64,000 nt of DNA from positions 36,828,001-36,892,000 of the forward strand of contig OX597835.1 in NCBI GenBank assembly GCA_951406725.2, in the 5' to 3' direction. Below the pieces are notes generated by a model that was not told the DNA's origin, did not search any database, and worked only from the letters and a program-made list of their open reading frames with translations. Positions 1,744-54,027 of this stretch are shown one piece after another. Origin of the DNA: Octopus vulgaris (lineage: Eukaryota). The position numbers were made by a program, and so were the translations under genes. Positions within the stretch are counted from its first letter, which is position 1; every line of letters starts with the position of its first letter.

Positions 1744-3708
1744 TATGTTTGACTTTTGCTTTATATTTGTACAAGTTGGCTCCAAGTCTCACCCAGAGAC
1801 CTCAAGAGACAACAGGGTTGGAAGTTCATGTTGTTGTTATGCCTAGTGTGCCATATATTTGGGGGTGGGGATGTTGTACTAATGAATGTCTAAAAAAAAA
1901 AAAAGTTTTTTTTTTTTTTTTTTTTTTAAACCGAAAATTATGGTTTGTTTTAAACCTTGAGATTACATAGAGAGTATTTTGCGTAGGATATGAGCAGTTC
2001 CCATGAGCACTATCTTTTGAACTTCTGCCATTTTTGGGTTTCCTGGTATCTGAGTTAGGTAGCTATCAGCCCCTTTTGCTATCATTCCCAGGGCACCTAT
2101 GACAACAGGTATTGTTTTAGTCTTCAGCTTCCACATTTTGCTGATTTCTATTTCAAGATCTTTATATTTGCTCAGTTTTTGGTAGGTCTTGACAGATACG
2201 TTTATATCGATTGGGACAGTCATATCAATGAGGAGGCATGTTCTTTGTTTGAAGTCTTTCAATATGATGTCTGGCCTATTTGCATCTATCTTCCTGTCAG
2301 TTTGAATGGTGAAGTTCCAGAGGAGTGAGATGTGGTCATTTTCAAGCACTGGAGGTGGATTGTGTTCCCACCAGTTTTTTTCATGGGGCAAATCCAGGTT
2401 TTTACAGATTACCCAGTGAATATATTGTGCAGCTCTATCGTGCCTGTTGAGATACTCTGTAGGCGCTAGAAGACTGCACTTGGAGACCACATGGTCAATG
2501 GTTTCATTTTGTTGCTTGCATACACGACACGTTGGGCTACTGATCTTTAATATGTTGGCCTGGTAGTTTCTTGTTGGTAGGCATTGATCTTGAGCTGCTA
2601 TGATAAACCCCTCTGTTTCAGATTTTAAGCCAGAGGCCATTAGCCATTGATGGGTCAGGGCTTTGTCGATATCTGCATTATTCGCTCTCTTTGGGTATTT
2701 GCCATAGAGAGGTTTTTCTTGCCATTTATTATTCAGAATATCTAAGGCCGCAGTTTTGGCACGGGTTTTCATGCGCCTAGCTTTTTCTGTGCTTGTTTCT
2801 TGTATGTCTATCTCTAATTCCGAAATTGGTTGTATTCGGAATTCACTTAGATATTCCTTTGCCTGTTTTGTGACTGAGTATGATGCTTTCTTGTTTTCAT
2901 GTTTTGAGACAAGTTTTAACATCCAGTCCTCAGAGTTTTTCAGGTAGGTGTCTAGGCCAATTGTAGCAATCTTCATTGTTATTGCCAGTTGCAAAAGACC
3001 ACGGCCTCCCTCTTTTCTTGGCAGATAGAGTCGTTCTGTATCTGCCTTAGGGTGGTGCATTCTATGCATTGTCAACAGTTTCTTATTTTTCTGTCGAGCT
3101 GACATATTTCAGTAATTGACCAGTTAACAATATTGAAACTGTAAGTCACGACTGGTATAGCTAATGCATTGATTGCTTCGATCCTGTTTCTTGCATTCAG
3201 CTCTGTCTTGAGTATTGCTCTCACTCTTCGATAGCATTCTCTCCTGATCCTTTCCTTCATCTCTGAATGCCTTATTCCGTTCCCTTCAATTACCCCTAGG
3301 TACTTGTAGCTCTCCGCTGGGTCTAGTTCTTTTATGACATTCTGTTGGTCAAGGTTAACGTTAGATGTTTCTGTCATTTTTCCTTTGATAAAGGTAGCCT
3401 TTGCACATTTATCGAGGCCGAATTGCATTCTGATGTCGTCACTGAATTGTTTGACTATCGCTAGTAAGCCCTTGAGTTGTTGATCATTTTTTGCAAAAAG
3501 CTTTAAATCATCCATGTAAACGAGATGATTTATATTTTTATCAAACATTTTATACCCGTACTGCGCGTCATTGAGCAGCTTTGAGAGAGGTATTAAGGAT
3601 AAACAAAAGAGGAGTGGTGACAGTGAGTCACCCTGGAAAATGCCACACGAAATTTTTACATCACCAGCATTTAGGGATTCACTGTCACTGTTCATAGTTA
3701 GTGTGGTT
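1743..3708 (-). mobile_element. 5'-truncated R4/Dong-like non-LTR retrotransposon (RT + CCHC + RLE endonuclease) with 3' UTR, inserted in (TTA)n
   Basis: ORF 3072-3695 has GIFQGDSLSP and YMDD; a frameshift leads to ORF 1963-3105 with CRVC..ETIDHVVSKC, RHD and RPDII..IDMTVP; (TTA)n arrays on both sides (about 1704-1742 and 3712-3763). Confidence 0.92.
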
Positions 3709-3711
3709 CTC

Positions 3712-3743
<32 letters not shown>

Positions 3744-3764
3744 GTTATTATTATTATTATTATG

Positions 3765-3900
3765 AAGACAGCAAGCTGGCAGATTACTTAGTGGTGTTTC
3801 ATCCCTCTTTATGTTCTGAGTTCAAATACTGTCAAGGTTGACTTCGCCTTTCATCCTTTCTGGGTCAATAAATTAAGTACTAGTGAAACACTGGGGTTGA
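3765..3900 (+). mobile_element. SINE family C fragment (Nin-domain-like core)
   Basis: GTTGACTTCGCCTTTCATCCTTTC..GGTCAATAAATTAAGTAC core shared with copies at 21146, 36168 and 57172. Confidence 0.7.
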
Positions 3901-12414: not shown

Positions 12415-13177
12415 GCACACACACATGCACACACACATGCACACAATTACATATGTGTATGAATGTATACATGAGCACATGTATGGATATATGTGTGTAG
12501 AAATATATATGTCTGTATGTGTATGCAAATTTTTGGACTGAATTTTATATCTTCTCACAATCTCTTTCTGTTTAGCAGTCAAACTATGTGAAAAATAGAG
12601 TTTTCACATAACCCTTCCGTTTAAATTTTTCATCATGCATTTCGGAAAGAACTGTGTTTCCCTCTCTATAAAGAGATAAATCTCTGATTCAAAGTCAGTT
12701 TGATAAGTAAGCTACAAGAATGCTATTTTGGACTAATGTTGCTTCTGTTGCTAATACACGAATTTTTAATCCAACCTGCCAGGTAACTATAGCATCAGTA
12801 ATTTGTTATCACTGTGTTTCTATATCAGTAAAGGGTAAATTTGTCTTGGCATACAGTTGCTAGTAGATGCTTGCTATTGATGATGCTCAAAAATACAGAA
12901 ATACGTATTTAGCAATTCTACCACAGCCACTGCTGAAAATATTTCTATCTTTTTAACACTTGCTTCGCAACCACATGGTTCCAGGTTATATATATATATA
13001 GGCGCAGGAGTGGCTATGTGGCAAGTAGCTTGCTTGCCAACAACATGGTTCTGGGTTCAGTCCCACTGCATGGTACCTTGGGCAAGTGTCTTTTGCTATA
13101 GCCTCGGGCCGACCAAAGCCTTGTGAGTGGATTTGGTAGACAGCAACTCAAAGAAGCCCATCGTATATATATATATA

Positions 13178-13995: not shown

Positions 13996-14035
<40 letters not shown>

Positions 14036-14405
14036 GTATAGGAAAGAATGGAGATTTAACAAAATTCCTTTATTTTATTTTCGACATATGTTTCGAAGTC
14101 TGCAATATTTCACGTCGACATTTTTAAGCATAAAGCGGAATTCTATAATGCTGCCCTGTCAAAAGCTGGTTATAGGGAAAAGGTAACATATATAGACCTG
14201 GCCCTTCCGAAACCAGAATTTTCTCATCGGGATAAGTCAACTTACAATAATATAAATAATATAAGTAGTGATGGTAGCTTTAGTAATATCGACACAAGTA
14301 CAGCTAACACAAATATAGCTAACATAAATAATTTGCGGTCCAAGGGAGACCATCGTAGGCCAAAACCCATTATTCAACCCAGAGATGCCCCCCTTAATGT
14401 AAGAG

Positions 14406-15416
14406 TTGACTCTCCGAGCCAGTACTAGAACAGGAAAAAACTATATCTGGTTTGTGATTCCCTTTGGTAAACAAATCAGATCTAACCTACCGTTGCAGTT
14501 CCGCCAAGCCATTGCCAGAAATTTTCCCAGAAATTTGAGATATTACTCCACTATAAATTCGCACAAAGTAAGGATAGCTTTCTCAAATACTAAAAATCTT
14601 TCACAGATAATTGCCTCCCATAACATTAAGCTGCTAAATAAGGCCCTGTCACCCATGAGCAGAGACTCTGCCCCGTTAAATTCCAACATAAGATATAGTA
14701 ATAATAATAATAATAGAAGTAGCACAGATATTAGCAGCCTTCATACCAGCATTGGCGTTAGTAATAGTAATAAGGATAAGAGCACTGACCTCGTCATTAA
14801 CGGAGGGAGTCTCAACAATAATATTAGCAGCGGTTTTAACAACAGTAGTTTTACGGACATTATCAATCACAGCATTCCCAGAAACAGGGAATATGCAGGT
14901 GATATTGCCTTAAATAGTAATGATAATGGGGTGAATAGTATCGAATCCAGCGGTAGTTTTTACAACCATCATAGTAATAAGAACGCTGTATTAGTATCGG
15001 AAACTAATCCCAATAGAATAAGGTTCTTATCAAATAACTCCAAAATTAGAAACGCCATTTACCAGTGCAGAATTTATGCTGGATCCGATGTCTTCCTCTA
15101 TATCGGCGCTACATCATCTAAATTAGCCACAAGAATATCGAACCATTTTTCCACATTTAGGGATAAAAAGAAACAACACTCTACTGGGCTAAGCAAATTA
15201 GTCTGGCGTTTGAAGAACACGAATTCAACTTTTAGGCTGGAATGGTCAATATTATCGGTGACTTTACCGTTTGATAAGGGCAAAAAAATCTGTGCCCTAT
15301 GTAATTCCGAACTCTTTCATATTCTGTTTGCCCAAGGCCGACTAATAAACTCGATTGTGGAGAGTTCTTTCAGATGCCCACACTGGAAAAAGCATACCTT
15401 TTTCTCATACCAATGA
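14406..15416 (+). pseudogene. PLE C-terminal region with GIY-YIG endonuclease (truncated; the ORF start is not a real start)
   Basis: IWFVIPF...HN linker, NAIYQCRI...LYIGAT...RISNH, C..C..E, C-terminal CPH. Confidence 0.85.
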
Positions 15417-15950
15417 AGTCTAATATAGATAACCCCTGGATTTCCTAAAAAATTTGAAAGGTGATACCTCATCCCTGTTAGTATAAAAGACTTTCTCATA
15501 GTTGCCAAGAACTACTACCAATCCCAACAGTAACCTTGTATCTTGTCATTGCTATTGTGGCCGCCCTCTCCCTATTAAGTTGTCACATTCGAGCACACAG
15601 ACACAGTCTTTTCAGTTCTTGACCGTTAATTCTTGCTATCTCTCTCTCTCTGCATTCCACACACACTTTCACGCATTCAAAGACGCACACACACATACAT
15701 TAATTTTACACACTCATACATCCGAGCACTCATTTACAGAATACATTCACACTCTTTAATTTTCCTATACCTTCCTTCTACTACCTTAATGCTGCCCTTG
15801 AACTATCTCAACGGACAATTTCTTCTGCTTTCATCCAATCTGGCGTCAACCTCTATAAATAGACATTTTTTATCATTATTTTTATGGGCTCCTCGTGAGC
15901 AGTCGTCGAAAAGCTTGTTGTGCATTTTGTTGGAGAATTAAGATCCTGGT

Positions 15951-16034
15951 TTTTCCTGAAGAGGAAGCTGCATAATGGACTCCTTATTCACTCGGAATTA
16001 GGAACTTTGCAGACTTCAAAACATATGTCGAAAA
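15951..16034 (+). ncRNA. Type I hammerhead ribozyme of the PLE pLTR (G12 mutated to A in this copy)
   Basis: TTTTC-CTGAAGA-G-GAAGCTGCA...TGCAGACTTC-AAAA-C-ATAT-G-TC-GAAAA; the inverted copy near 14080-14105 retains GAAA. Confidence 0.8.
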
Positions 16035-16357
16035 TAAAATAAAGGAATTTTGTTAAATCTTCGTTCAGCTCCATTCTTTCCTATACTTAATATATAAAAC
16101 TTCAAATTTCCGCACTAAGGCACGGATTTTATGCCCTATGGTCGTAACTTCAACCGTGCCCTTTCTGTTGTGAGTTTGCTAACCAGGTATCGGTTATCTT
16201 TCGAATTATCCATAATAAAATAATTCACTTGTCTACTTAAATATATATATATATATTTATTTTATAGAAGGAGCTTCTATAAAATAAATTAATTTACTCT
16301 GCCATGTATTGAGTACCTTATTTACTGTGGTTAACCCCGACTCAACCCAGGGCCTAC

Positions 16358-19519: not shown

Positions 19520-19685
19520 AAAAAAAATATATATATCTATATATATTACGGAGATGTACTTGCATAGCAAGTGATTTGATCTGGATCGAGTGCTGAAACG
19601 AAAACAATTGCAGCATGGAAGGTGTTTGTAAGTCATTTAAGAAACACACAAAAGCCGTTCGATTCACTTCAACATTTAAGTTTAA

Positions 19686-19736
19686 TTTGTCAAAATATTT
19701 TCGTCGCTTTAAGACCGCGACCTGTTCACTGACAAA
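19686..19736 (-). ncRNA. Minimal type I hammerhead, G3:C8 variant
   Basis: TTTGTCA-GTGAACA-G-GTCGC-loop-GCGAC-GAAA-ATAT-TT-TGACAAA. Confidence 0.75.
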
Positions 19737-19771
19737 AATCCGTGCTGCATCCGTGAGATGCAGCACGGATT

Positions 19772-19822
19772 TTTGTCAGTGAACAGGTCGCAGTCTTAAA
19801 GCGACGAAAATATTTTGACAAA
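19772..19822 (+). ncRNA. Minimal type I hammerhead, G3:C8 variant
   Basis: Same motif on the plus strand in the other arm. Confidence 0.75.
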
Positions 19823-19903
19823 TTAAACTTAAATGTTGAAGTGAATCGAACGGCTTTTGTGTGTTTCTTAAATGGCTTACAAACACCTTCCACGCTGCAA
19901 TTG

Positions 19904-19945
<42 letters not shown>

Positions 19946-20214: not shown

Positions 20215-20406
20215 ACTGTTGGCGATTTTTTCGCTCGTCTTCCCTTCTCTGGATCTTTCCTTTTCCTATGTTTCTGACGAAGAGCTCCGCTCGAAACGTT
20301 AAACCCTCCTTCTTCCCTTCCTTCCTGAGCATCCAATAATACTATATTTGTTCCATGTCCTCACACTGTTGCGTTTTCTCTTTGTGTTTTCATGTTTGGA
20401 TTCACT
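20211..20406 (+). mobile_element. Solo PLE pseudo-LTR-like unit in (TA)n
   Basis: About 195-bp unit between TA arrays, containing a canonical minimal hammerhead. Confidence 0.7.
20270..20304 (+). ncRNA. Minimal type I hammerhead ribozyme (canonical C3:G8)
   Basis: GTTT-CTGACGA-A-GAGC-TCC-GCTC-GAAACGT-T-AAAC; palindromic ACGT helix III. Confidence 0.85.
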
Positions 20407-21434: not shown

Positions 21435-23942
21435 TGGTGGTGGAACACTGTAGTTGACAGGGCTATTAGACAAAAGAGACAGGCTTGGAAGGACTGGAAG
21501 AACGGTGGTAGCAGGGAATTGTATCAGACAGCCAGAAGGGAAGCTAGGAGACAGGTTTATTTAGCCAGAGGGGAAGCGGATAAGAAAAAATTTGCCAATG
21601 TTCTGAGCCATGAGGATGAAAGACTTGAGGTATTTCGTGTTGCAAGACAGTGTGTGAGAGAGAATCGTGATGTGGTAGGAGAGAAGTGTGTTCGCATGGA
21701 TGATGGTTCACTTGTGCTAAATGAGTATGCAAAGAGAGAGGTTTGGAGATGCCACTATGAAAGGTTGCTGAATAAAGAAAATGAATGGGATAAAGAGTGT
21801 CTGCCGAATGTCAACCCAACAGAGCATGAAGACAGGGAAAGCCCCAGGCCCATCAGGAATTACTGCAGAGATGCTCAAAATATCTGGCAGTGTCGGCTAT
21901 AACCTAGTCACCCGTATAGTCAACCAGGTGATACACGAAGGAGTCATACCCAATGACTGGTGTAGCAGCATACTAGTCAACTGCTACAAAGGTAAAGGTG
22001 ATGCCCTGGATACAAATAATTACAGAGGTATCAAGCTGTTGGATCAGGTAATGAAGGTTACGGAGAGGGTCATAGCCCAACTAATTAGAGAGAGAGTTAG
22101 TTTAGATGAGATGCAGTTTGGGTTGTCCCAGGGAAAAGCACCACTGATGCTATATTCCTGGTAAGGCAGCTGCAGGAGAAACACCTAGCCAAGGATAAGC
22201 CCTTGTACCTGGCTTTCGTTGACATGGAGAAAGCTTTTGATAGGGTCCCCCGATCCCTCATCTGGTGGTCAATGAGGAAACTAGGGATAGATGAATGGCT
22301 GGTGAGGGCTGTGCAAGCCATGTACAGAGATGCCGTAAGTAAGGTTAGGATTGGCAACATGTACACAGAAGAATTCAAAGTAGAGGTTGGGGTCCACCAG
22401 GGTTCAGTACTCAGCCCCCTCCTATTTATCATAGTCCTCCAGGCAATTACGGAGGAATTCAAGACAGGTTGCCCCTGGGAGCTCCTCTACGCTGACGACC
22501 TTGCTCTAATTGCTGAGTCACTATCAGAACTGGAGGAGAAGTTCCAGGTGTGGAAGGAGGGTTTAGAATCGAGGGGCCTTAGAGTCAACCTAGCTAAAAC
22601 CAAAGTACTAATAAGTAGGAAGGTAGACAATCCACAAATGTCTTCAGGAAGATGGCCCTGCTCGATCTGTAGAAAAGGTGTAGGTAGAAACTCTATAAGA
22701 TGTACCCAGTGTAAGCTATGGACACTAAGAGGTGCAGCAATGTCAAAGGTAGGCTAACTGGGAAGATAGTTTTTGTATGTGGCAGATGCTTGGGAGCATT
22801 AACCTCCGAAAATCTGCAGAAAACAACTTCCGTCACTTTCCAGGGGAAAAACTAGAAGTAGTTGATAGCTTCCGTTATCTAGGTGACCAAGTCAGTAGTG
22901 GGGGTGGGTGCGCTGAAAGTGTAACTGCTAGAATAAGAATAGCCTGGGCAAAGTTTAGGGAGCTCTTACCTCTGCTGGTGACTAAAGGCCTCTCGCTCAG
23001 AGTAAAAGGCAGACTGTATGATGCATGTGTACGAACAGCCATGCTACAAGGCAGTGAAACATGGGCCGTGACTGCTGAGGACATGCGTAAGCTCGTGAGG
23101 AATGAAGCCAGTATGCTCCGATGGATGTGTAATGTCAGTGTACATACTCGACAGAGCGTTAGTACCTTGAGAGAAATGTTGTACCTAAGAAGCATCAGTT
23201 GTGGTGTGCAAGAGAGACGATTGCGCTGGTATGGTCATGTGGTGAGAATGGATGAAGATAGGTGTGTGAGAAAGTGCCAATCCCTAGCAGTTGAGGGAAC
23301 CCGTGGAAGAGGTAGACCCAGGAAAACCTGGGACGAGGTGGTGAAGCACGACCTTTGAACTTTAGGCCTCACTGAGGAAATGACCAGCGACCGAGACCTT
23401 TGGAAATATGCTGTACGTGAGAAGACCAGGCAGGACAAGTGAGCCCAGCCCACTTATGAATGCCTTTCCTCCCTTGGACACAAAGACCTGTTGAGGCAAG
23501 CGAAGTCAGTATAGAACCTCATCCGACGACAGGCACCCATGCCAACCCCCTTTGCTTGCGAAGACATGTTGGGTCAAGCGAAATAGAAATCGAATTGAAC
23601 CAGCCAGGATCCCTGGTCTGGTGGTACGTAAAAAGCACTATCCGACTCGTGGCCGATGCCAGCGCCGCCTCGACTGGCTTCCGTGCCGGTGGCACATAAA
23701 ATACACCAATCCGACCATGGCCGTTGCCAGCCTCGCCTGGCACCTGTGCAGGTGGCACGTAAAAAGCACCCACTACACTCACGGAGTGGTTGGCGTTAGG
23801 AAGGGCATCCAGCTGTAGAAACATTGCCAGATAAGACTGGAGCCTGGTGCAGCCTTCTGGCTTCCCAGATCCCCGGTCGAACCGTCCAACCCATGCTAGC
23901 ATGGAGAACGGACGTTAAACGATGATGATGATGATGATGATG

Positions 23943-30884: not shown

Positions 30885-30890
<6 letters not shown>

Positions 30891-31416
30891 TATTAAAATT
30901 ACTAAGTCTCTCTAAAAGAGAACAACGGCAGCGTTCCCGGAAAATAATAGTTATCGCCATACTAATATGGCATTCTTATAAAAATAAGAATAAAGCTGAC
31001 CGCTTATTAGCTCCATGAGGCCATCGCCTTAAGTTAGCTATTTGATACACAAACTGTATCCATATAAACTTCGAACAAGGAAGGTCAGTCGCTCCACACT
31101 ACTTGACCGGCAGCTACAGACGCGTTTCGGGGTATTGCCCCTTTTCAATGCAGCGTAGCCAGACCAGTAGGTGTCGCTTCTGACAATCTCTGTTCGAAGG
31201 TTTTATTTACCTAGCTTCGGTGGAATACATCCACTTGTTTTCAATAATAGAAATATTAAAATTACTAAGTCTCTCTAAAAGAGAACAACAGCAGCGTTCC
31301 CGGAAAATAATAGTTATCGCCATACTAATATGGCATTCTTATAAAAATAAGAATAAAGCTGTCCGCTTATTAGCTCCATGAGGCCATCGCCTTAAGTTAG
31401 CTATTTGATACACAAA
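30885..31416 (-). mobile_element. Hammerhead-bearing ~363-nt unit in 1.46 tandem copies (retrozyme / non-autonomous PLE-like)
   Basis: 169-bp direct repeat 30885-31053 / 31248-31416 (period 363); hammerhead in the unique part; starts at a (TA)n array. Confidence 0.8.
31113..31154 (-). ncRNA. Minimal type I hammerhead, U3:A8 variant
   Basis: GCTGCA-TTGAAAA-GGGG-CAATA-CCCC-GAAA-CGCG-TC-TGTAGC; all three helices pair. Confidence 0.8.
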
Positions 31417-49597: not shown

Positions 49598-49823
49598 GTA
49601 ATGATTATGATGGTGGTGATGGTGGCAGCAGCGGTGGTGTTGCTACTGCTGCTGCTGCTCTTGACACCTGTTTCTTGTACTTTTTCAGACTCCCTATGTG
49701 TTCACATATATACATTCACATTTATCTATGTATATATATATATAATTGCAGCGTGGGAGGTGTTTATAAGCCATTTAAGAAACACACAAAAGCCGTTCGA
49801 TTCACTCCAACATTTGAGTTTAA

Positions 49824-49873
49824 TTTGTCAAAATATTTTCGTCGCTAAAATCCGCGACCTGTTCACTGACAAA
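49824..49873 (-). ncRNA. Minimal type I hammerhead, G3:C8 variant (left arm)
   Basis: Reverse complement of 53783-53832. Confidence 0.75.
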
Positions 49874-50837
49874 GTCCGTGCTGCATCTAAGAAAGTAACA
49901 GTTAGTTCGTCATATATATGTATGTACGTATGTATGTGTGTATGTACGCATACATGTGTGTATGTATGTACGTATTCATGTCCGCACATACGCCTGTGTA
50001 TGCATGTATGTATGTATGTATGTATATATGTATGTGTGTGTATAAGCACGCACATACACTCTATAAAACATAAAGTTATAAACCTGTAGCGATGGATGGA
50101 TGTAGAGTGACCACTCATCACAACGCTATCAAATTTCAACTCCCTACGGCCGAGGCTAGAAAGTGAATTTATGACGCTTGCTCACAAGAACTATACCCTC
50201 AAATCTATTATCAGATTTTTATCTCTATATCACAGAACTAATGTTTTACTATTGTTCGTATGTATGTATGTATGTATGTGCGTATGTATGTATGTATGTA
50301 TGTATGTATGTATGTATGTATGTATGTATGTACATACGTACGCATGTGCGTATGTATGTATACGCGCCCGTATGCATGTGCCCATGTATGTGTGTGTGTA
50401 CATGTACGTGCGTATGTACGTGTGTATGCCCATACGTAGGTATGTATGTATGTTTGTATTCATGTGCTACGTATGTATGTGAGTGTCTAGGAGAATGGGC
50501 AGATGTGTCCGTGAGAGTGTGTACATGTGTATGTGTATGTGAACGTATGTCCGTGTACTGGCATGTGTCCGTCCAAGTTGTGTACATGACTGTTACTTAG
50601 CTGAAGGTTGTATACATATTTACATATATGTTTGTATAGACGCACACACATATATATATATGTGTGTGGGTGTGTGTTTGTTCCTCTCATCGTCGTCTAA
50701 CCGTGAATGGGTACAACGCCTAGGTGCGACTGTTCGTATCAAACAACGTCTGCTCATACCGTTGTATATAACTGCACATACGCATTGCAACCTGTATGTA
50801 AGGACTACAGGTGAAAGGGAGAGAGAGAGAGGGGTGG

Positions 50838-51737
50838 TTATAGAATAGTCCTTCTGAATGGGATCTGGATGTTATTCCATTCGGACTTTCGGTTGAGAGT
50901 AGGTTTGTATTCTTGTATACAAACAGCTTCTGTGACCTGTCTCAACATTGCATCGGTGGGATGTGTAGATAGGATGTTCAACTTAAGCTCCCCTAAGGAT
51001 CCCTTGTGGCAGTCTACAGCATGTTGGTAGAAGATGGAGTTTGGCTTCCTTTCAATGTAGTTGTCCAGGTGTTCTTTGAACCTATCATTGATGCTTCTAG
51101 AGGTCTCACCTATGTATGACTCCGGGTTAGCCGCGCAAGCTCCCTCCTGGCACTTAATCTGGTATACAGTGCCCTTGGTTTTACAATTTACGTGTGGATT
51201 TGTCGAACACACTGCACAATTACTCTGACAGGTGATTCTATCAAATGGATATGATCTGCATAATGCCGATTTGATAGTCCTACCTGTCTTTTCTACAACT
51301 TTAACTTTTAGGCCCGTAGTGCGCAGGACTTTCTTGAATGCCTTACTTAGCTCGTTCATAGGTGTGGCGTCAACGAACATCACTCCGTGAAATCTCCTGT
51401 TATCGTACCAAGTAACGTTTCTCATCTTTTTGTTGGTGTCCCTCTCTAACCTATTCCAGAACTTGTTGCGGTACAGGGGGCATATACCGTTTTCGTCGTT
51501 CCCTAGAATGCGTTCGAATCTAGCTTTCGCTCCTTTGTACACCCTGACTCTATCGTCTTGTGTGTATCCGGAACGTTGCATTCGGAATATGTAGTGCTGG
51601 ATGTGTTGTTGTCGTTCTTGTGGTTGGCATAGTGGTGATACATTCCTCATTACTCTAACTAAGTCTGCCACTAGGATGTTGAGTTTGGCAGTATCCGACA
51701 CAGCTGAGTCACTACGGATTACTAGTGGATTAGCCAT
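50838..51737 (-). CDS. PLE C-terminal fragment: RT thumb + Cys-rich linker + GIY-YIG endonuclease (Naiad-like by motif)
   Basis: (HYQKP)MANPLVI..., C...CAVC...NCKTKGTVYQIKC...YIGETSRS...RF.EH...RQVTEAV.I....P.LN.K.EW. Confidence 0.85.
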   Translation of the reverse strand: MANPLVIRSDSAVSDTAKLNILVADLVRVMRNVSPLCQPQERQQHIQHYIFRMQRSGYTQDDRVRVYKGAKARFERILGNDENGICPLYRNKFWNRLERDTNKKMRNVTWYDNRRFHGVMFVDATPMNELSKAFKKVLRTTGLKVKVVEKTGRTIKSALCRSYPFDRITCQSNCAVCSTNPHVNCKTKGTVYQIKCQEGACAANPESYIGETSRSINDRFKEHLDNYIERKPNSIFYQHAVDCHKGSLGELKLNILSTHPTDAMLRQVTEAVCIQEYKPTLNRKSEWNNIQIPFRRTIL

Positions 51738-51915
51738 CGGTTTCTGATAGTGTGAGTGGAGTATACATGGTTTAATGTGAGTTTAGTGTGAGTGGAGTAT
51801 ACATGGTTTAATGGTACCATTAACTATAGTTAATGGTACCATTAAACCATGTATACTCCACTCACACTAAACTCACATTAAACCATGTATACTCCACTCA
51901 CACTATCAGAAACCG

Positions 51916-52815
51916 ATGGCTAATCCACTAGTAATCCGTAGTGACTCAGCTGTGTCGGATACTGCCAAACTCAACATCCTAGTGGCAGACTTAGTTAGAG
52001 TAATGAGGAATGTATCACCACTATGCCAACCACAAGAACGACAACAACACATCCAGCACTACATATTCCGAATGCAACGTTCCGGATACACACAAGACGA
52101 TAGAGTCAGGGTGTACAAAGGAGCGAAAGCTAGATTCGAACGCATTCTAGGGAACGACGAAAACGGTATATGCCCCCTGTACCGCAACAAGTTCTGGAAT
52201 AGGTTAGAGAGGGACACCAACAAAAAGATGAGAAACGTTACTTGGTACGATAACAGGAGATTTCACGGAGTGATGTTCGTTGACGCCACACCTATGAACG
52301 AGCTAAGTAAGGCATTCAAGAAAGTCCTGCGCACTACGGGCCTAAAAGTTAAAGTTGTAGAAAAGACAGGTAGGACTATCAAATCGGCATTATGCAGATC
52401 ATATCCATTTGATAGAATCACCTGTCAGAGTAATTGTGCAGTGTGTTCGACAAATCCACACGTAAATTGTAAAACCAAGGGCACTGTATACCAGATTAAG
52501 TGCCAGGAGGGAGCTTGCGCGGCTAACCCGGAGTCATACATAGGTGAGACCTCTAGAAGCATCAATGATAGGTTCAAAGAACACCTGGACAACTACATTG
52601 AAAGGAAGCCAAACTCCATCTTCTACCAACATGCTGTAGACTGCCACAAGGGATCCTTAGGGGAGCTTAAGTTGAACATCCTATCTACACATCCCACCGA
52701 TGCAATGTTGAGACAGGTCACAGAAGCTGTTTGTATACAAGAATACAAACCTACTCTCAACCGAAAGTCCGAATGGAATAACATCCAGATCCCATTCAGA
52801 AGGACTATTCTATAA
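51916..52815 (+). CDS. PLE C-terminal fragment: RT thumb + Cys-rich linker + GIY-YIG endonuclease (identical second copy)
   Basis: Same 299-aa translation as 50838-51737; uninterrupted frame; the RT catalytic core is absent. Confidence 0.85.
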   Translation: MANPLVIRSDSAVSDTAKLNILVADLVRVMRNVSPLCQPQERQQHIQHYIFRMQRSGYTQDDRVRVYKGAKARFERILGNDENGICPLYRNKFWNRLERDTNKKMRNVTWYDNRRFHGVMFVDATPMNELSKAFKKVLRTTGLKVKVVEKTGRTIKSALCRSYPFDRITCQSNCAVCSTNPHVNCKTKGTVYQIKCQEGACAANPESYIGETSRSINDRFKEHLDNYIERKPNSIFYQHAVDCHKGSLGELKLNILSTHPTDAMLRQVTEAVCIQEYKPTLNRKSEWNNIQIPFRRTIL

Positions 52816-53782
52816 CCACCCCCTCTCTCTCTCCCTTTCACCTGTAGTCCTTACATACAGGTTGCAATGCGTATGTGCAGTTATATACAACGGTATGAGC
52901 AGACGTTGTTTGATACGAACAGTCGCACCTAGGCGTTGTACCCATTCACGGTTAGACGACGATGAGAGGAACAAACACACACCCACACACATATATATAT
53001 ATGTGTGTGCGTCTATACAAACATATATGTAAATATGTATACAACCTTCAGCTAAGTAACAGTCATGTACACAACTTGGACGGACACATGCCAGTACACG
53101 GACATACGTTCACATACACATACACATGTACACACTCTCACGGACACATCTGCCCATTCTCCTAGACACTCACATACATACGTAGCACATGAATACAAAC
53201 ATACATACATACCTACGTATGGGCATACACACGTACATACGCACGTACATGTACACACACACATACATGGGCACATGCATACGGGCGCGTATACATACAT
53301 ACGCACATGCGTACGTATGTACATACATACATACATACATACATACATACATACATACATACATACATACATACGCACATACATACATACATACATACGA
53401 ACAATAGTAAAACATTAGTTCTGTGATATAGAGATAAAAATCTGATAATAGATTTGAGGGTATAGTTCTTGTGAGCAAGCGTCATAAATTCACTTTCTAG
53501 CCTCGGCCGTAGGGAGTTGAAATTTGATAGCGTTGTGATGAGTGGTCACTCTACATCCATCCATCGCTACAGGTTTATAACTTTATGTTTTATAGAGTGT
53601 ATGTGCGTGCTTATACACACACATACATATATACATACATACATACATACATGCATACACAGGCGTATGTGCGGACATGAATACGTACATACATACACAC
53701 ATGTATGCGTACATACACACATACATACGTACATACATATATATGACGAACTAACTGTTACTTTCTTAGATGCAGCACGGAC

Positions 53783-53832
53783 TTTGTCAGTGAACAGGTC
53801 GCGGATTTTAGCGACGAAAATATTTTGACAAA
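53783..53832 (+). ncRNA. Minimal type I hammerhead, G3:C8 variant (right arm, 3' pLTR)
   Basis: TTTGTCA-GTGAACA-G-GTCGC-GGATTTTA-GCGAC-GAAA-ATAT-TT-TGACAAA, sense to the ORF. Confidence 0.78.
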
Positions 53833-53969
53833 TTAAACTCAAATGTTGGAGTGAATCGAACGGCTTTTGTGTGTTTCTTAAATGGCTTATAAACACCTCC
53901 CACGCTGCAATTGTTTTCGTTTCAGCACACGATCTCAGATCAAATTACTTGCTATGCGAGTACATCTCC

Positions 53970-54027
<58 letters not shown>

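Follow-up and report, generated by a model that had tools for sequence, protein, structure and literature searches.

A minimal hammerhead motif with a G3:C8 core pair in a Penelope-like element family of Octopus vulgaris

In hammerhead ribozymes, positions 3 and 8 of the catalytic core pair with each other, and catalysis at position 8 uses the ribose 2'-OH. Engineered ribozymes have defined how far the identity of this pair can be exchanged: a G8C substitution slows cleavage about 100,000-fold and C3G partly restores it (PMC8495972), in a full pairwise scan strong positive epistasis within this region was confined to one double mutant, the G:C swap (Roberts et al., 2023; PMC9901934), and the activity of an engineered G3:C8 core is stated, with the data not shown there, to be lower when position 17 is C than when it is G (PMC3884650). 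Natural 3:8 covariation is in print as a U3-A8 hammerhead family in Schistosoma (PMC4209133), and a collection of natural core variants that likewise includes compensatory 3:8 change names only U3:A8 in its text (Perreault et al., 2011; PMC3088659); six spellings of a G3:C8 core had no match in the text of 11 supplements to that study.

The closest natural relatives of the motif described here are the minimal hammerheads of metazoan Penelope-like elements (PLEs), motifs that are silent as monomers and weak or very slow even as dimers or trimers (Cervera and De la Pena, 2014; PMC4209133); small PLE hammerheads with a short palindromic stem III have been described as cleaving as dimers (Lünse, Weinberg and Breaker, RNA Biol 14:1499, via PMC6765202). 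The search descriptors of the former study fixed the core pair as C3:G8 or U3:A8, and its 56 representatives (Fig. S3 of PMC4209133, scored by eye) comprise 53 with C3:G8, two with U3 and A8, one with U3 and G8 and none with G3:C8. The ORF of PAc, a Poseidon element of Anolis, begins within its hammerhead, which cut only with the help of the element's protein; cutting was regained in part by an engineered C3G/G8C double mutant, insertion in vitro could do without the hammerhead, and none of the RNA-seq reads terminated at the cut site (Frangieh et al., 2024; PMC11167929). PLEs of the Neptune/Nematis type show a cysteine linker, 5' truncation, inversion, a one-sided tail and microsatellite targets, and Naiad PLEs thrive without canonical hammerheads (PMC8557442).

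Anatomy of the G3:C8 motif and its copies

We analyzed a single stretch of 64,000 nucleotides of O. vulgaris DNA, referred to throughout as the window. Parsing of positions 53783-53832 (+) confirmed the initial annotation of this segment, made from sequence alone, as a minimal hammerhead and candidate ribozyme with a GUGAACA core, intact stems I and II, a GAAA and a palindrome, and placed it in type I. The 5' strand of a 7-bp stem I (53783-53789) is followed by the core residues G3 U4 G5 A6 A7 C8 A9 (53790-53796, with G3 at 53790 and C8 at 53795), an extra unpaired G between A9 and G10.1 (53797), a 5-bp stem II closed by G10.1-C11.1 (53798-53802 with 53811-53815) that carries an 8-nt loop II (53803-53810), the GAAA (53816-53819), a 6-nt palindrome extending from A15.1 to U16.1 that corresponds to helix III (53819-53824), U17 (53825) and the 3' strand of stem I (53826-53832), all on the forward strand; the cut is predicted to fall between 53825 and 53826. 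The initial annotation had the core and stems right; it does not mention the extra G, a nucleotide that is in its own right characteristic of PLE hammerheads.

Inspection of the core shows that U4, G5, A6, A9, G10.1, C11.1, G12, A13, A14, A15.1 and U16.1 are intact and that position 17 conforms to H17; positions 3 and 8 are the sole conserved core residues to have changed, and they are mutually complementary (G3:C8, Watson-Crick). The canonical C3/G8 identity (CUGANGA) is replaced by GUGAACA in all four copies found in the window, which marks the motif as a variant of the hammerhead and does not exclude it from the class, the swap being tolerated in vitro. With the metazoan PLE hammerheads it shares type I topology, a location in the pseudo-LTR (pLTR), a nucleotide inserted between A9 and G10.1, the G10.1-C11.1 pair, GAAA, a palindromic helix III and H17 (PMC4209133), and its descent from a PLE hammerhead is close to certain. 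The G at the extra position lies outside the >80% consensus (H) of that published set and occurs in one of its representatives, and the U17 of the window family would avoid a G3-C17 pair. Engineered G3:C8 hammerheads carry the same activity-rescuing swap (PMC9901934, PMC8495972, PMC3884650), but these are laboratory mutants of full-size ribozymes with tertiary contacts, whereas the window holds a natural minimal motif.

The copy at 53783-53832 belongs to an insertion (insertion 1) whose inverted arm holds an identical copy at 49824-49873 (-); insertion 2 holds a copy with a 9-nt loop II at 19772-19822 (+) and, in its other arm, one that differs from it at a single loop position (19686-19736, -). 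The four arms of the original claim are present as four copies, but they are two inverted duplications and count as two observations. The accompanying claim that loop II differs between the insertions while the stems are kept was borne out, with differences at 0 of 42 core and stem positions, 4 of 9 loop II positions and 12 of 153 flanking positions. Core and stems differ from loop II at p=0.0005, with the caveat that the loop is rich in runs, and the comparison of core and stems with the flanks is not significant (Fisher p=0.07). Compensatory stem changes were absent among the window copies.

Set to any Watson-Crick pair at 3:8 and to minimum stem lengths of 7 and 5 bp, a descriptor recovered four motifs in the window and none in any of 300 block-wise, dinucleotide-preserving shuffles, and its loosest setting (3+3 bp) recovered six against a shuffle mean of 0.027. 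The minimum-energy folds of two copies contain stems I and II (z of -3.4 and -2.2), with 1 of 200 and 6 of 200 shuffles, respectively, folding equally well. The prediction that a search for CUGANGA would miss this variant was upheld, and general models fared no better: Rfam gave no hammerhead match at gathering threshold across the 64-kb window, and the 11 matches obtained over 53700-53980 at E up to 10 include no hammerhead family, being driven by microsatellites or chance. A covariance model of the kind suggested at the outset, built from three window copies and run against the window and eight related loci, retrieved the four known copies together with four chance-level matches (E 1.1-3.5) and failed to pick up the motifs of two related loci, L002 and L005 (described below), because three near-identical sequences make the model too narrow. 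An alignment of seven motifs was dropped as a source of pair counts, its stems being out of register.

The window also holds unrelated C3:G8 and U3:A8 motifs. A descriptor search located a minimal hammerhead with a U3:A8 core, a 6-bp stem I and a 6-nt palindrome at 31113-31154 (-), which lies between two 169-nt direct repeats that are 99% alike (30885-31053 and 31248-31416) and is probably the partial-tandem end of another PLE family, as well as, some 370 nt away from insertion 2, a minimal hammerhead with the canonical CUGACGA core at 20270-20304 (+), its stems 4 bp long and its palindrome 4 nt. A second, decayed PLE with short inverted ends (14026-16096), recognized by a domain match to a C-terminal GIY-YIG frame (14403-15416), carries a C3:G8 hammerhead at ~15950-16034 in which G12 is changed; its inverted arm (14026-14105, -) keeps the GAAA and only the 3' half of the hammerhead. 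A decayed hammerhead-like stretch at 12871-12915 (+) combines U3 with G8, a 6-bp stem I, an 8-nt palindrome and a poor stem II. Broken reverse transcriptase frames of non-LTR type (RVT_1, zf-RVT) at 1963-3821 (-) and 22110-23358 (+) are unrelated to the hammerhead.

The host element, its insertions and its relatives

Judged by its sequence features, the host of the motif is a 5'-truncated PLE of Neptune/Nematis type inserted in (TA)n. Insertion 1 (49745-53972) is an inverted repeat of this truncated element with (TA)n flanks and a centre at 51826/51827, and comparison of its arms gives 2082 identities, no mismatches and five gap positions, indicating that the insertion is recent or homogenised. 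Insertion 2 (19547-19905) consists of two inverted arms, ~205 and ~150 nt long, that represent the 3' end of the element, also in (TA)n, and is ~92% alike to insertion 1. Around the inversion centre of insertion 1 (51760-51900) lies a nest of short duplications with a small hairpin, resembling template switching at a truncation point. As the arms are opposite in orientation, a transcript of either insertion would hold one sense and one antisense motif, which precludes a cis dimer at these loci; tandem sense pairs of the motif were absent from the window. A read-through transcript of insertion 1 would be long double-stranded RNA.

An open frame of 314 aa, stop to stop, encodes the C-terminal part of a PLE protein (51871-52815, +), with a mirror copy in the inverted arm (50838-51782, -). 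Its GIY-YIG domain scores just below the Pfam cut-off (22.3 against 22.6 bits; E=1.6e-4), and a CX3CxxC linker (C185-C189-C192) and a CCHH motif were identified by eye. The reverse transcriptase core itself is cut off in the window element, and reverse transcriptase motifs are present in an alignment of 18 longer homologues that are 33-51% identical to the window protein; identity to 44 shorter homologues reaches 54-58% at most. The C-terminal GIY-YIG with CCHH, with the reverse transcriptase upstream in longer homologues, is the layout of endonuclease-bearing (EN+) PLEs, as are the 5' truncation, inverted arrangement and one-end tail of the insertions, and the CX2-5CxxC linker before a C-terminal endonuclease and the (TA)n microsatellite targets are those of Neptune/Nematis elements. 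In a protein tree of 24 rows, made up of relatives and one Octopus protein, the window protein groups with that O. vulgaris protein (support 97/90), a placement that, along with the microsatellite-rich landscape, points to an octopus host. No relatives of the window protein were found among 81 candidate stretches in viral contigs or among 33 in prokaryotic genomes, and 120 prokaryotic matches to a 16-nt pattern were set aside as chance, with at most 23 nt matching the element end. A non-LTR retrozyme, made up of noncoding hammerhead units repeated head to tail, was also rejected as an assignment, since the copies in the window are inverted and coding sequence adjoins one of them.

The hammerhead lies on the sense strand of the element, in the pLTR downstream of the endonuclease, with the stop of the frame 975 nt before G3 and the element end 140 nt downstream. 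A ~60-nt 'tail' (53913-53972, +), present in only one arm of each insertion, is a PLE hallmark (PMC8557442, PMC11167929). Just upstream of the motif, 14 nt before stem I, a candidate branch point, pyrimidine tract and AG (53751-53769, +) form a putative 3' splice site, and downstream of it an ATG 57 nt after U17, followed by 30 open codons to the element end (53882-53971, +), could be the start of the next unit's ORF; four of eight non-CpG variant places in this candidate frame are silent. A splice acceptor followed by a start codon is a layout known from Drosophila and Anolis elements. PAc resembles the window element in having a hammerhead beside the ORF start, in ending within the first codons with a tail, and in that its mutant core equals the core found here; it differs in being natively C3:G8 and of the Poseidon clade, whereas the window element is natively G3:C8 with the CX2-5CxxC linker of Neptune/Nematis, and in that its ORF starts inside the ribozyme, whereas the candidate ATG of the window element follows it (PMC11167929). 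The two arms of insertion 2 start at positions (19752-19757) that correspond to 53768-53769, and one 945-nt public contig (from sequencing run X10) also starts there, at the AG of the candidate splice acceptor; this recurrent 5' boundary could reflect a principal RNA 5' end or a non-autonomous short unit.

A metagenome scan for relatives yielded eight loci (L001-L008), and a descriptor with positions 3 and 8 left free found the motif in two of them. L002, whose protein is 38% identical to the window protein, has a C3:G8 hammerhead ~35 nt after the endonuclease stop, and L005, at 50% identity, has a U3:A8 hammerhead ~70 nt after the stop; each has an extra nucleotide, stems of its own and a palindrome, and in each an ATG lies ~35 nt after N17. 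Of the five related loci extending to the end of the endonuclease, the same descriptor drew a blank in three: the L001 locus terminates in a tandem repeat ~230 nt after the stop, L003 lacks the motif, and L004, in which the relevant stretch follows a more distant PLE, shows at ~2250-2310 a decayed C3:G8-like core with GAAA, a 12-nt palindrome and no clear stem II (seen by eye and not counted). L006-L008 end before the endonuclease. The 3:8 pair therefore covaries, with C3:G8, U3:A8 and G3:C8 at the same place in three lineages only. The initial proposal of a PLE hammerhead with a swapped 3:8 pair is accordingly sustained by a PLE host, by C3:G8 and U3:A8 relatives and by a double mutant that rescues activity (PMC9901934, PMC11167929); its expectation of covariation is answered among relatives by the three states of the 3:8 pair, and the stems show no compensatory change within the family.

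State of the 3:8 pair in public contigs

G3:C8 is the fixed state of a highly repeated PLE family. Part of the coding stretch is present in 20 of the 24 sequencing runs listed, drawn from eight studies and three organism codes, and the contigs of four runs (three organism codes) placed on 53390-53985 number 10624, 1142, 8838 and 168. Coverage is deepest on the last 200 nt, 53611-53747 having been skipped as repeat, and the contigs are graph fragments that report neither copy number nor RNA ends or levels, so that summed depth is not copy number. In the four runs no G>C change reached 3% anywhere on 53390-53985, no C>G change reached 3% inside the motif, every C>G place lying outside it, and no C3:G8 class of at least 3% was seen in the contigs.

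The sole in-motif substitution among the variants listed, at 53828, converts a U-A pair of stem I to U-G at 8-10% of depth in three of the four runs and 2% in the fourth, and the 140 nt downstream of the motif contain 14-17 variable places. Beyond the variants listed, a further 11, 4, 8 and 3 places in the four runs (11 in X1, 8 in X10) have no assigned position; those of the other two runs, X3 and X9, change no G or C, and those of X1 and X10 include G>A, C>T and C>A changes that could fall inside the motif. Insertions in the contigs fall within loop II and just 5' of stem I. The same core appears in loose-end consensuses of 47 and 38 contigs, and a loose-end consensus of 16 contigs (X10) has a changed stem II 5' side. 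Among the listed variants there is one that keeps a pair and none that changes a stem on both sides.

Contigs pass from the element into (TA)n at two places, ~53911-53916 and 53972, which matches the two-ended arrangement of PLEs, and no spliced joint at the candidate 3' splice site appears among the 15 of 17 joints listed. In X1 and X10, individual contigs that reach 53827, 53839 or 53902-53914 jump back to 53783 or 53810, in some cases at high depth. They may be short tandem copies of the stretch around the ribozyme, from which cis dimers could form; they are too few to be called arrays.

A candidate slow ribozyme and competing explanations

The explanation we favor, with a probability of about 0.62, is that the motif is a PLE pseudo-LTR hammerhead in which C3:G8 has been replaced by G3:C8 and fixed, and that it is a slow candidate ribozyme needing a partner copy or a protein. 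The hammerhead of the window family has probably retained the ability to cut. The best fold of the monomer pairs G3 with U17, and closing helix III costs 5.4 kcal/mol; a free monomer would accordingly be expected to be silent, having no stable helix III and a G3 able to pair with U17. A second sense copy in a tandem transcript could complete helix III through the 6-nt palindrome and so permit the cut after U17, or the element's own protein could instead fold the RNA to the same end. The double-hammerhead fold lies 2.2 kcal/mol above two free monomers (3.1 for L005 and 5.0 for L002), and nearest-neighbour energies do not favor a dimer of the window motif. Given that the motif sits between the candidate 3' splice site and the candidate ATG, a cut would shorten tandem transcripts to single units and take off the capped leader, with the bulk of the RNA staying uncut for translation and reverse transcription. 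All four window arms keep an uncut motif, which indicates that they were copied from uncut or re-ligated RNA, and together with the repeated boundary at 53768-53769, which is not the predicted cut, this suggests that uncut RNA is the usual template. A bolder version, which we advance only tentatively, would make this the first natural G3:C8 hammerhead, with cutting selected yet kept slow and gated by a partner copy or protein as a timer between translation and reverse transcription; the lineage would then have crossed an inactive single-mutant state and been restored by the one compensatory change that works.

Several other readings have to be set against the favored one. The motif might be derived from a hammerhead and no longer cut, the ribozyme of the master copy being effectively dead, with G3:C8 carried along and conservation reflecting the youth of the family or other roles (splice acceptor region, leader or protein binding). 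That genomic copies derive from uncut RNA, that G3 mispairs with U17 in the monomer fold, that there are just two independent insertions with a non-significant contrast between stems and flanks (p=0.07), that PLE insertion proceeds in vitro without cleavage (PMC11167929) and that even multimers of minimal PLE hammerheads cleave very slowly (PMC4209133) would all fit such a history. It gives no reason, however, why change should have struck exactly two paired positions, in complementary fashion, with the other eleven kept, an outcome with odds of ~1 in 78 for the position pair times 1 in 3 for complementarity by a rough estimate that is open to ascertainment; nor does it account for motif positions being less variable than the downstream flank in four runs, or for G3:C8 being a known rescue (PMC9901934). 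On balance we consider loss of cutting rather unlikely.

Less probable again, and in our view improbable, is an active ribozyme serving expression control, in which a cut in the leader would decap the mRNA or switch the mode of translation and a slow core would tune protein output. The placement of the motif between a candidate splice acceptor and a candidate ATG, the ATG ~35 nt after N17 in L002 and L005, the Anolis ORF that starts inside its hammerhead (PMC11167929) and the derivation of copies from uncut RNA are consistent with it, but the splice site and start codon are read from the nucleotide sequence only, and an ATG can often be expected within 60 nt by chance. A fortuitous resemblance to a hammerhead would explain why no Rfam hammerhead family matches and why a model of three window copies missed L002 and L005; with 0 of 300 shuffles yielding the motif, a position at the end of a PLE and the same architecture in relatives, it is for practical purposes already refuted.

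Neither the motif nor its host constitutes a new class of ribozyme or element. PLE minimal hammerheads, the dimer model and natural U3:A8 covariation are already known, and it may be that only the G:C state is new. The wording of the full texts and supplements we searched contains G3:C8 solely as laboratory mutants and no natural example; Lünse et al. (2017), the chief survey of such PLE variants, may already list G3:C8, 3:8 exchanges are also the subject of Przybilski and Hammann (2007), and priority for a natural G3:C8 hammerhead is unproven. The word 'ribozyme' is absent from the main text of a 2026 repeat annotation of O. vulgaris (PMC13282606). This highly repeated family escapes searches that rely on CUGANGA, U3:A8 or the Rfam models, and given this blind spot, claims that certain PLE groups are without hammerheads merit rechecking with a free 3:8 pair.

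The finding bears on why PLEs keep hammerheads at all, these being very slow, dispensable in one in vitro insertion system and missing from the Naiad clade. Passage from C3:G8 to G3:C8 needed two transversions with a mismatch between them, and the end point is the only double substitution known to rescue the core, which offers natural evidence for selection of a cleavage-competent fold. Three related elements with C:G, U:A and G:C cores now form a comparable set, and the value of the G3:C8 family lies in the natural evidence it provides that the 3:8 pair is under selection in PLE hammerheads.
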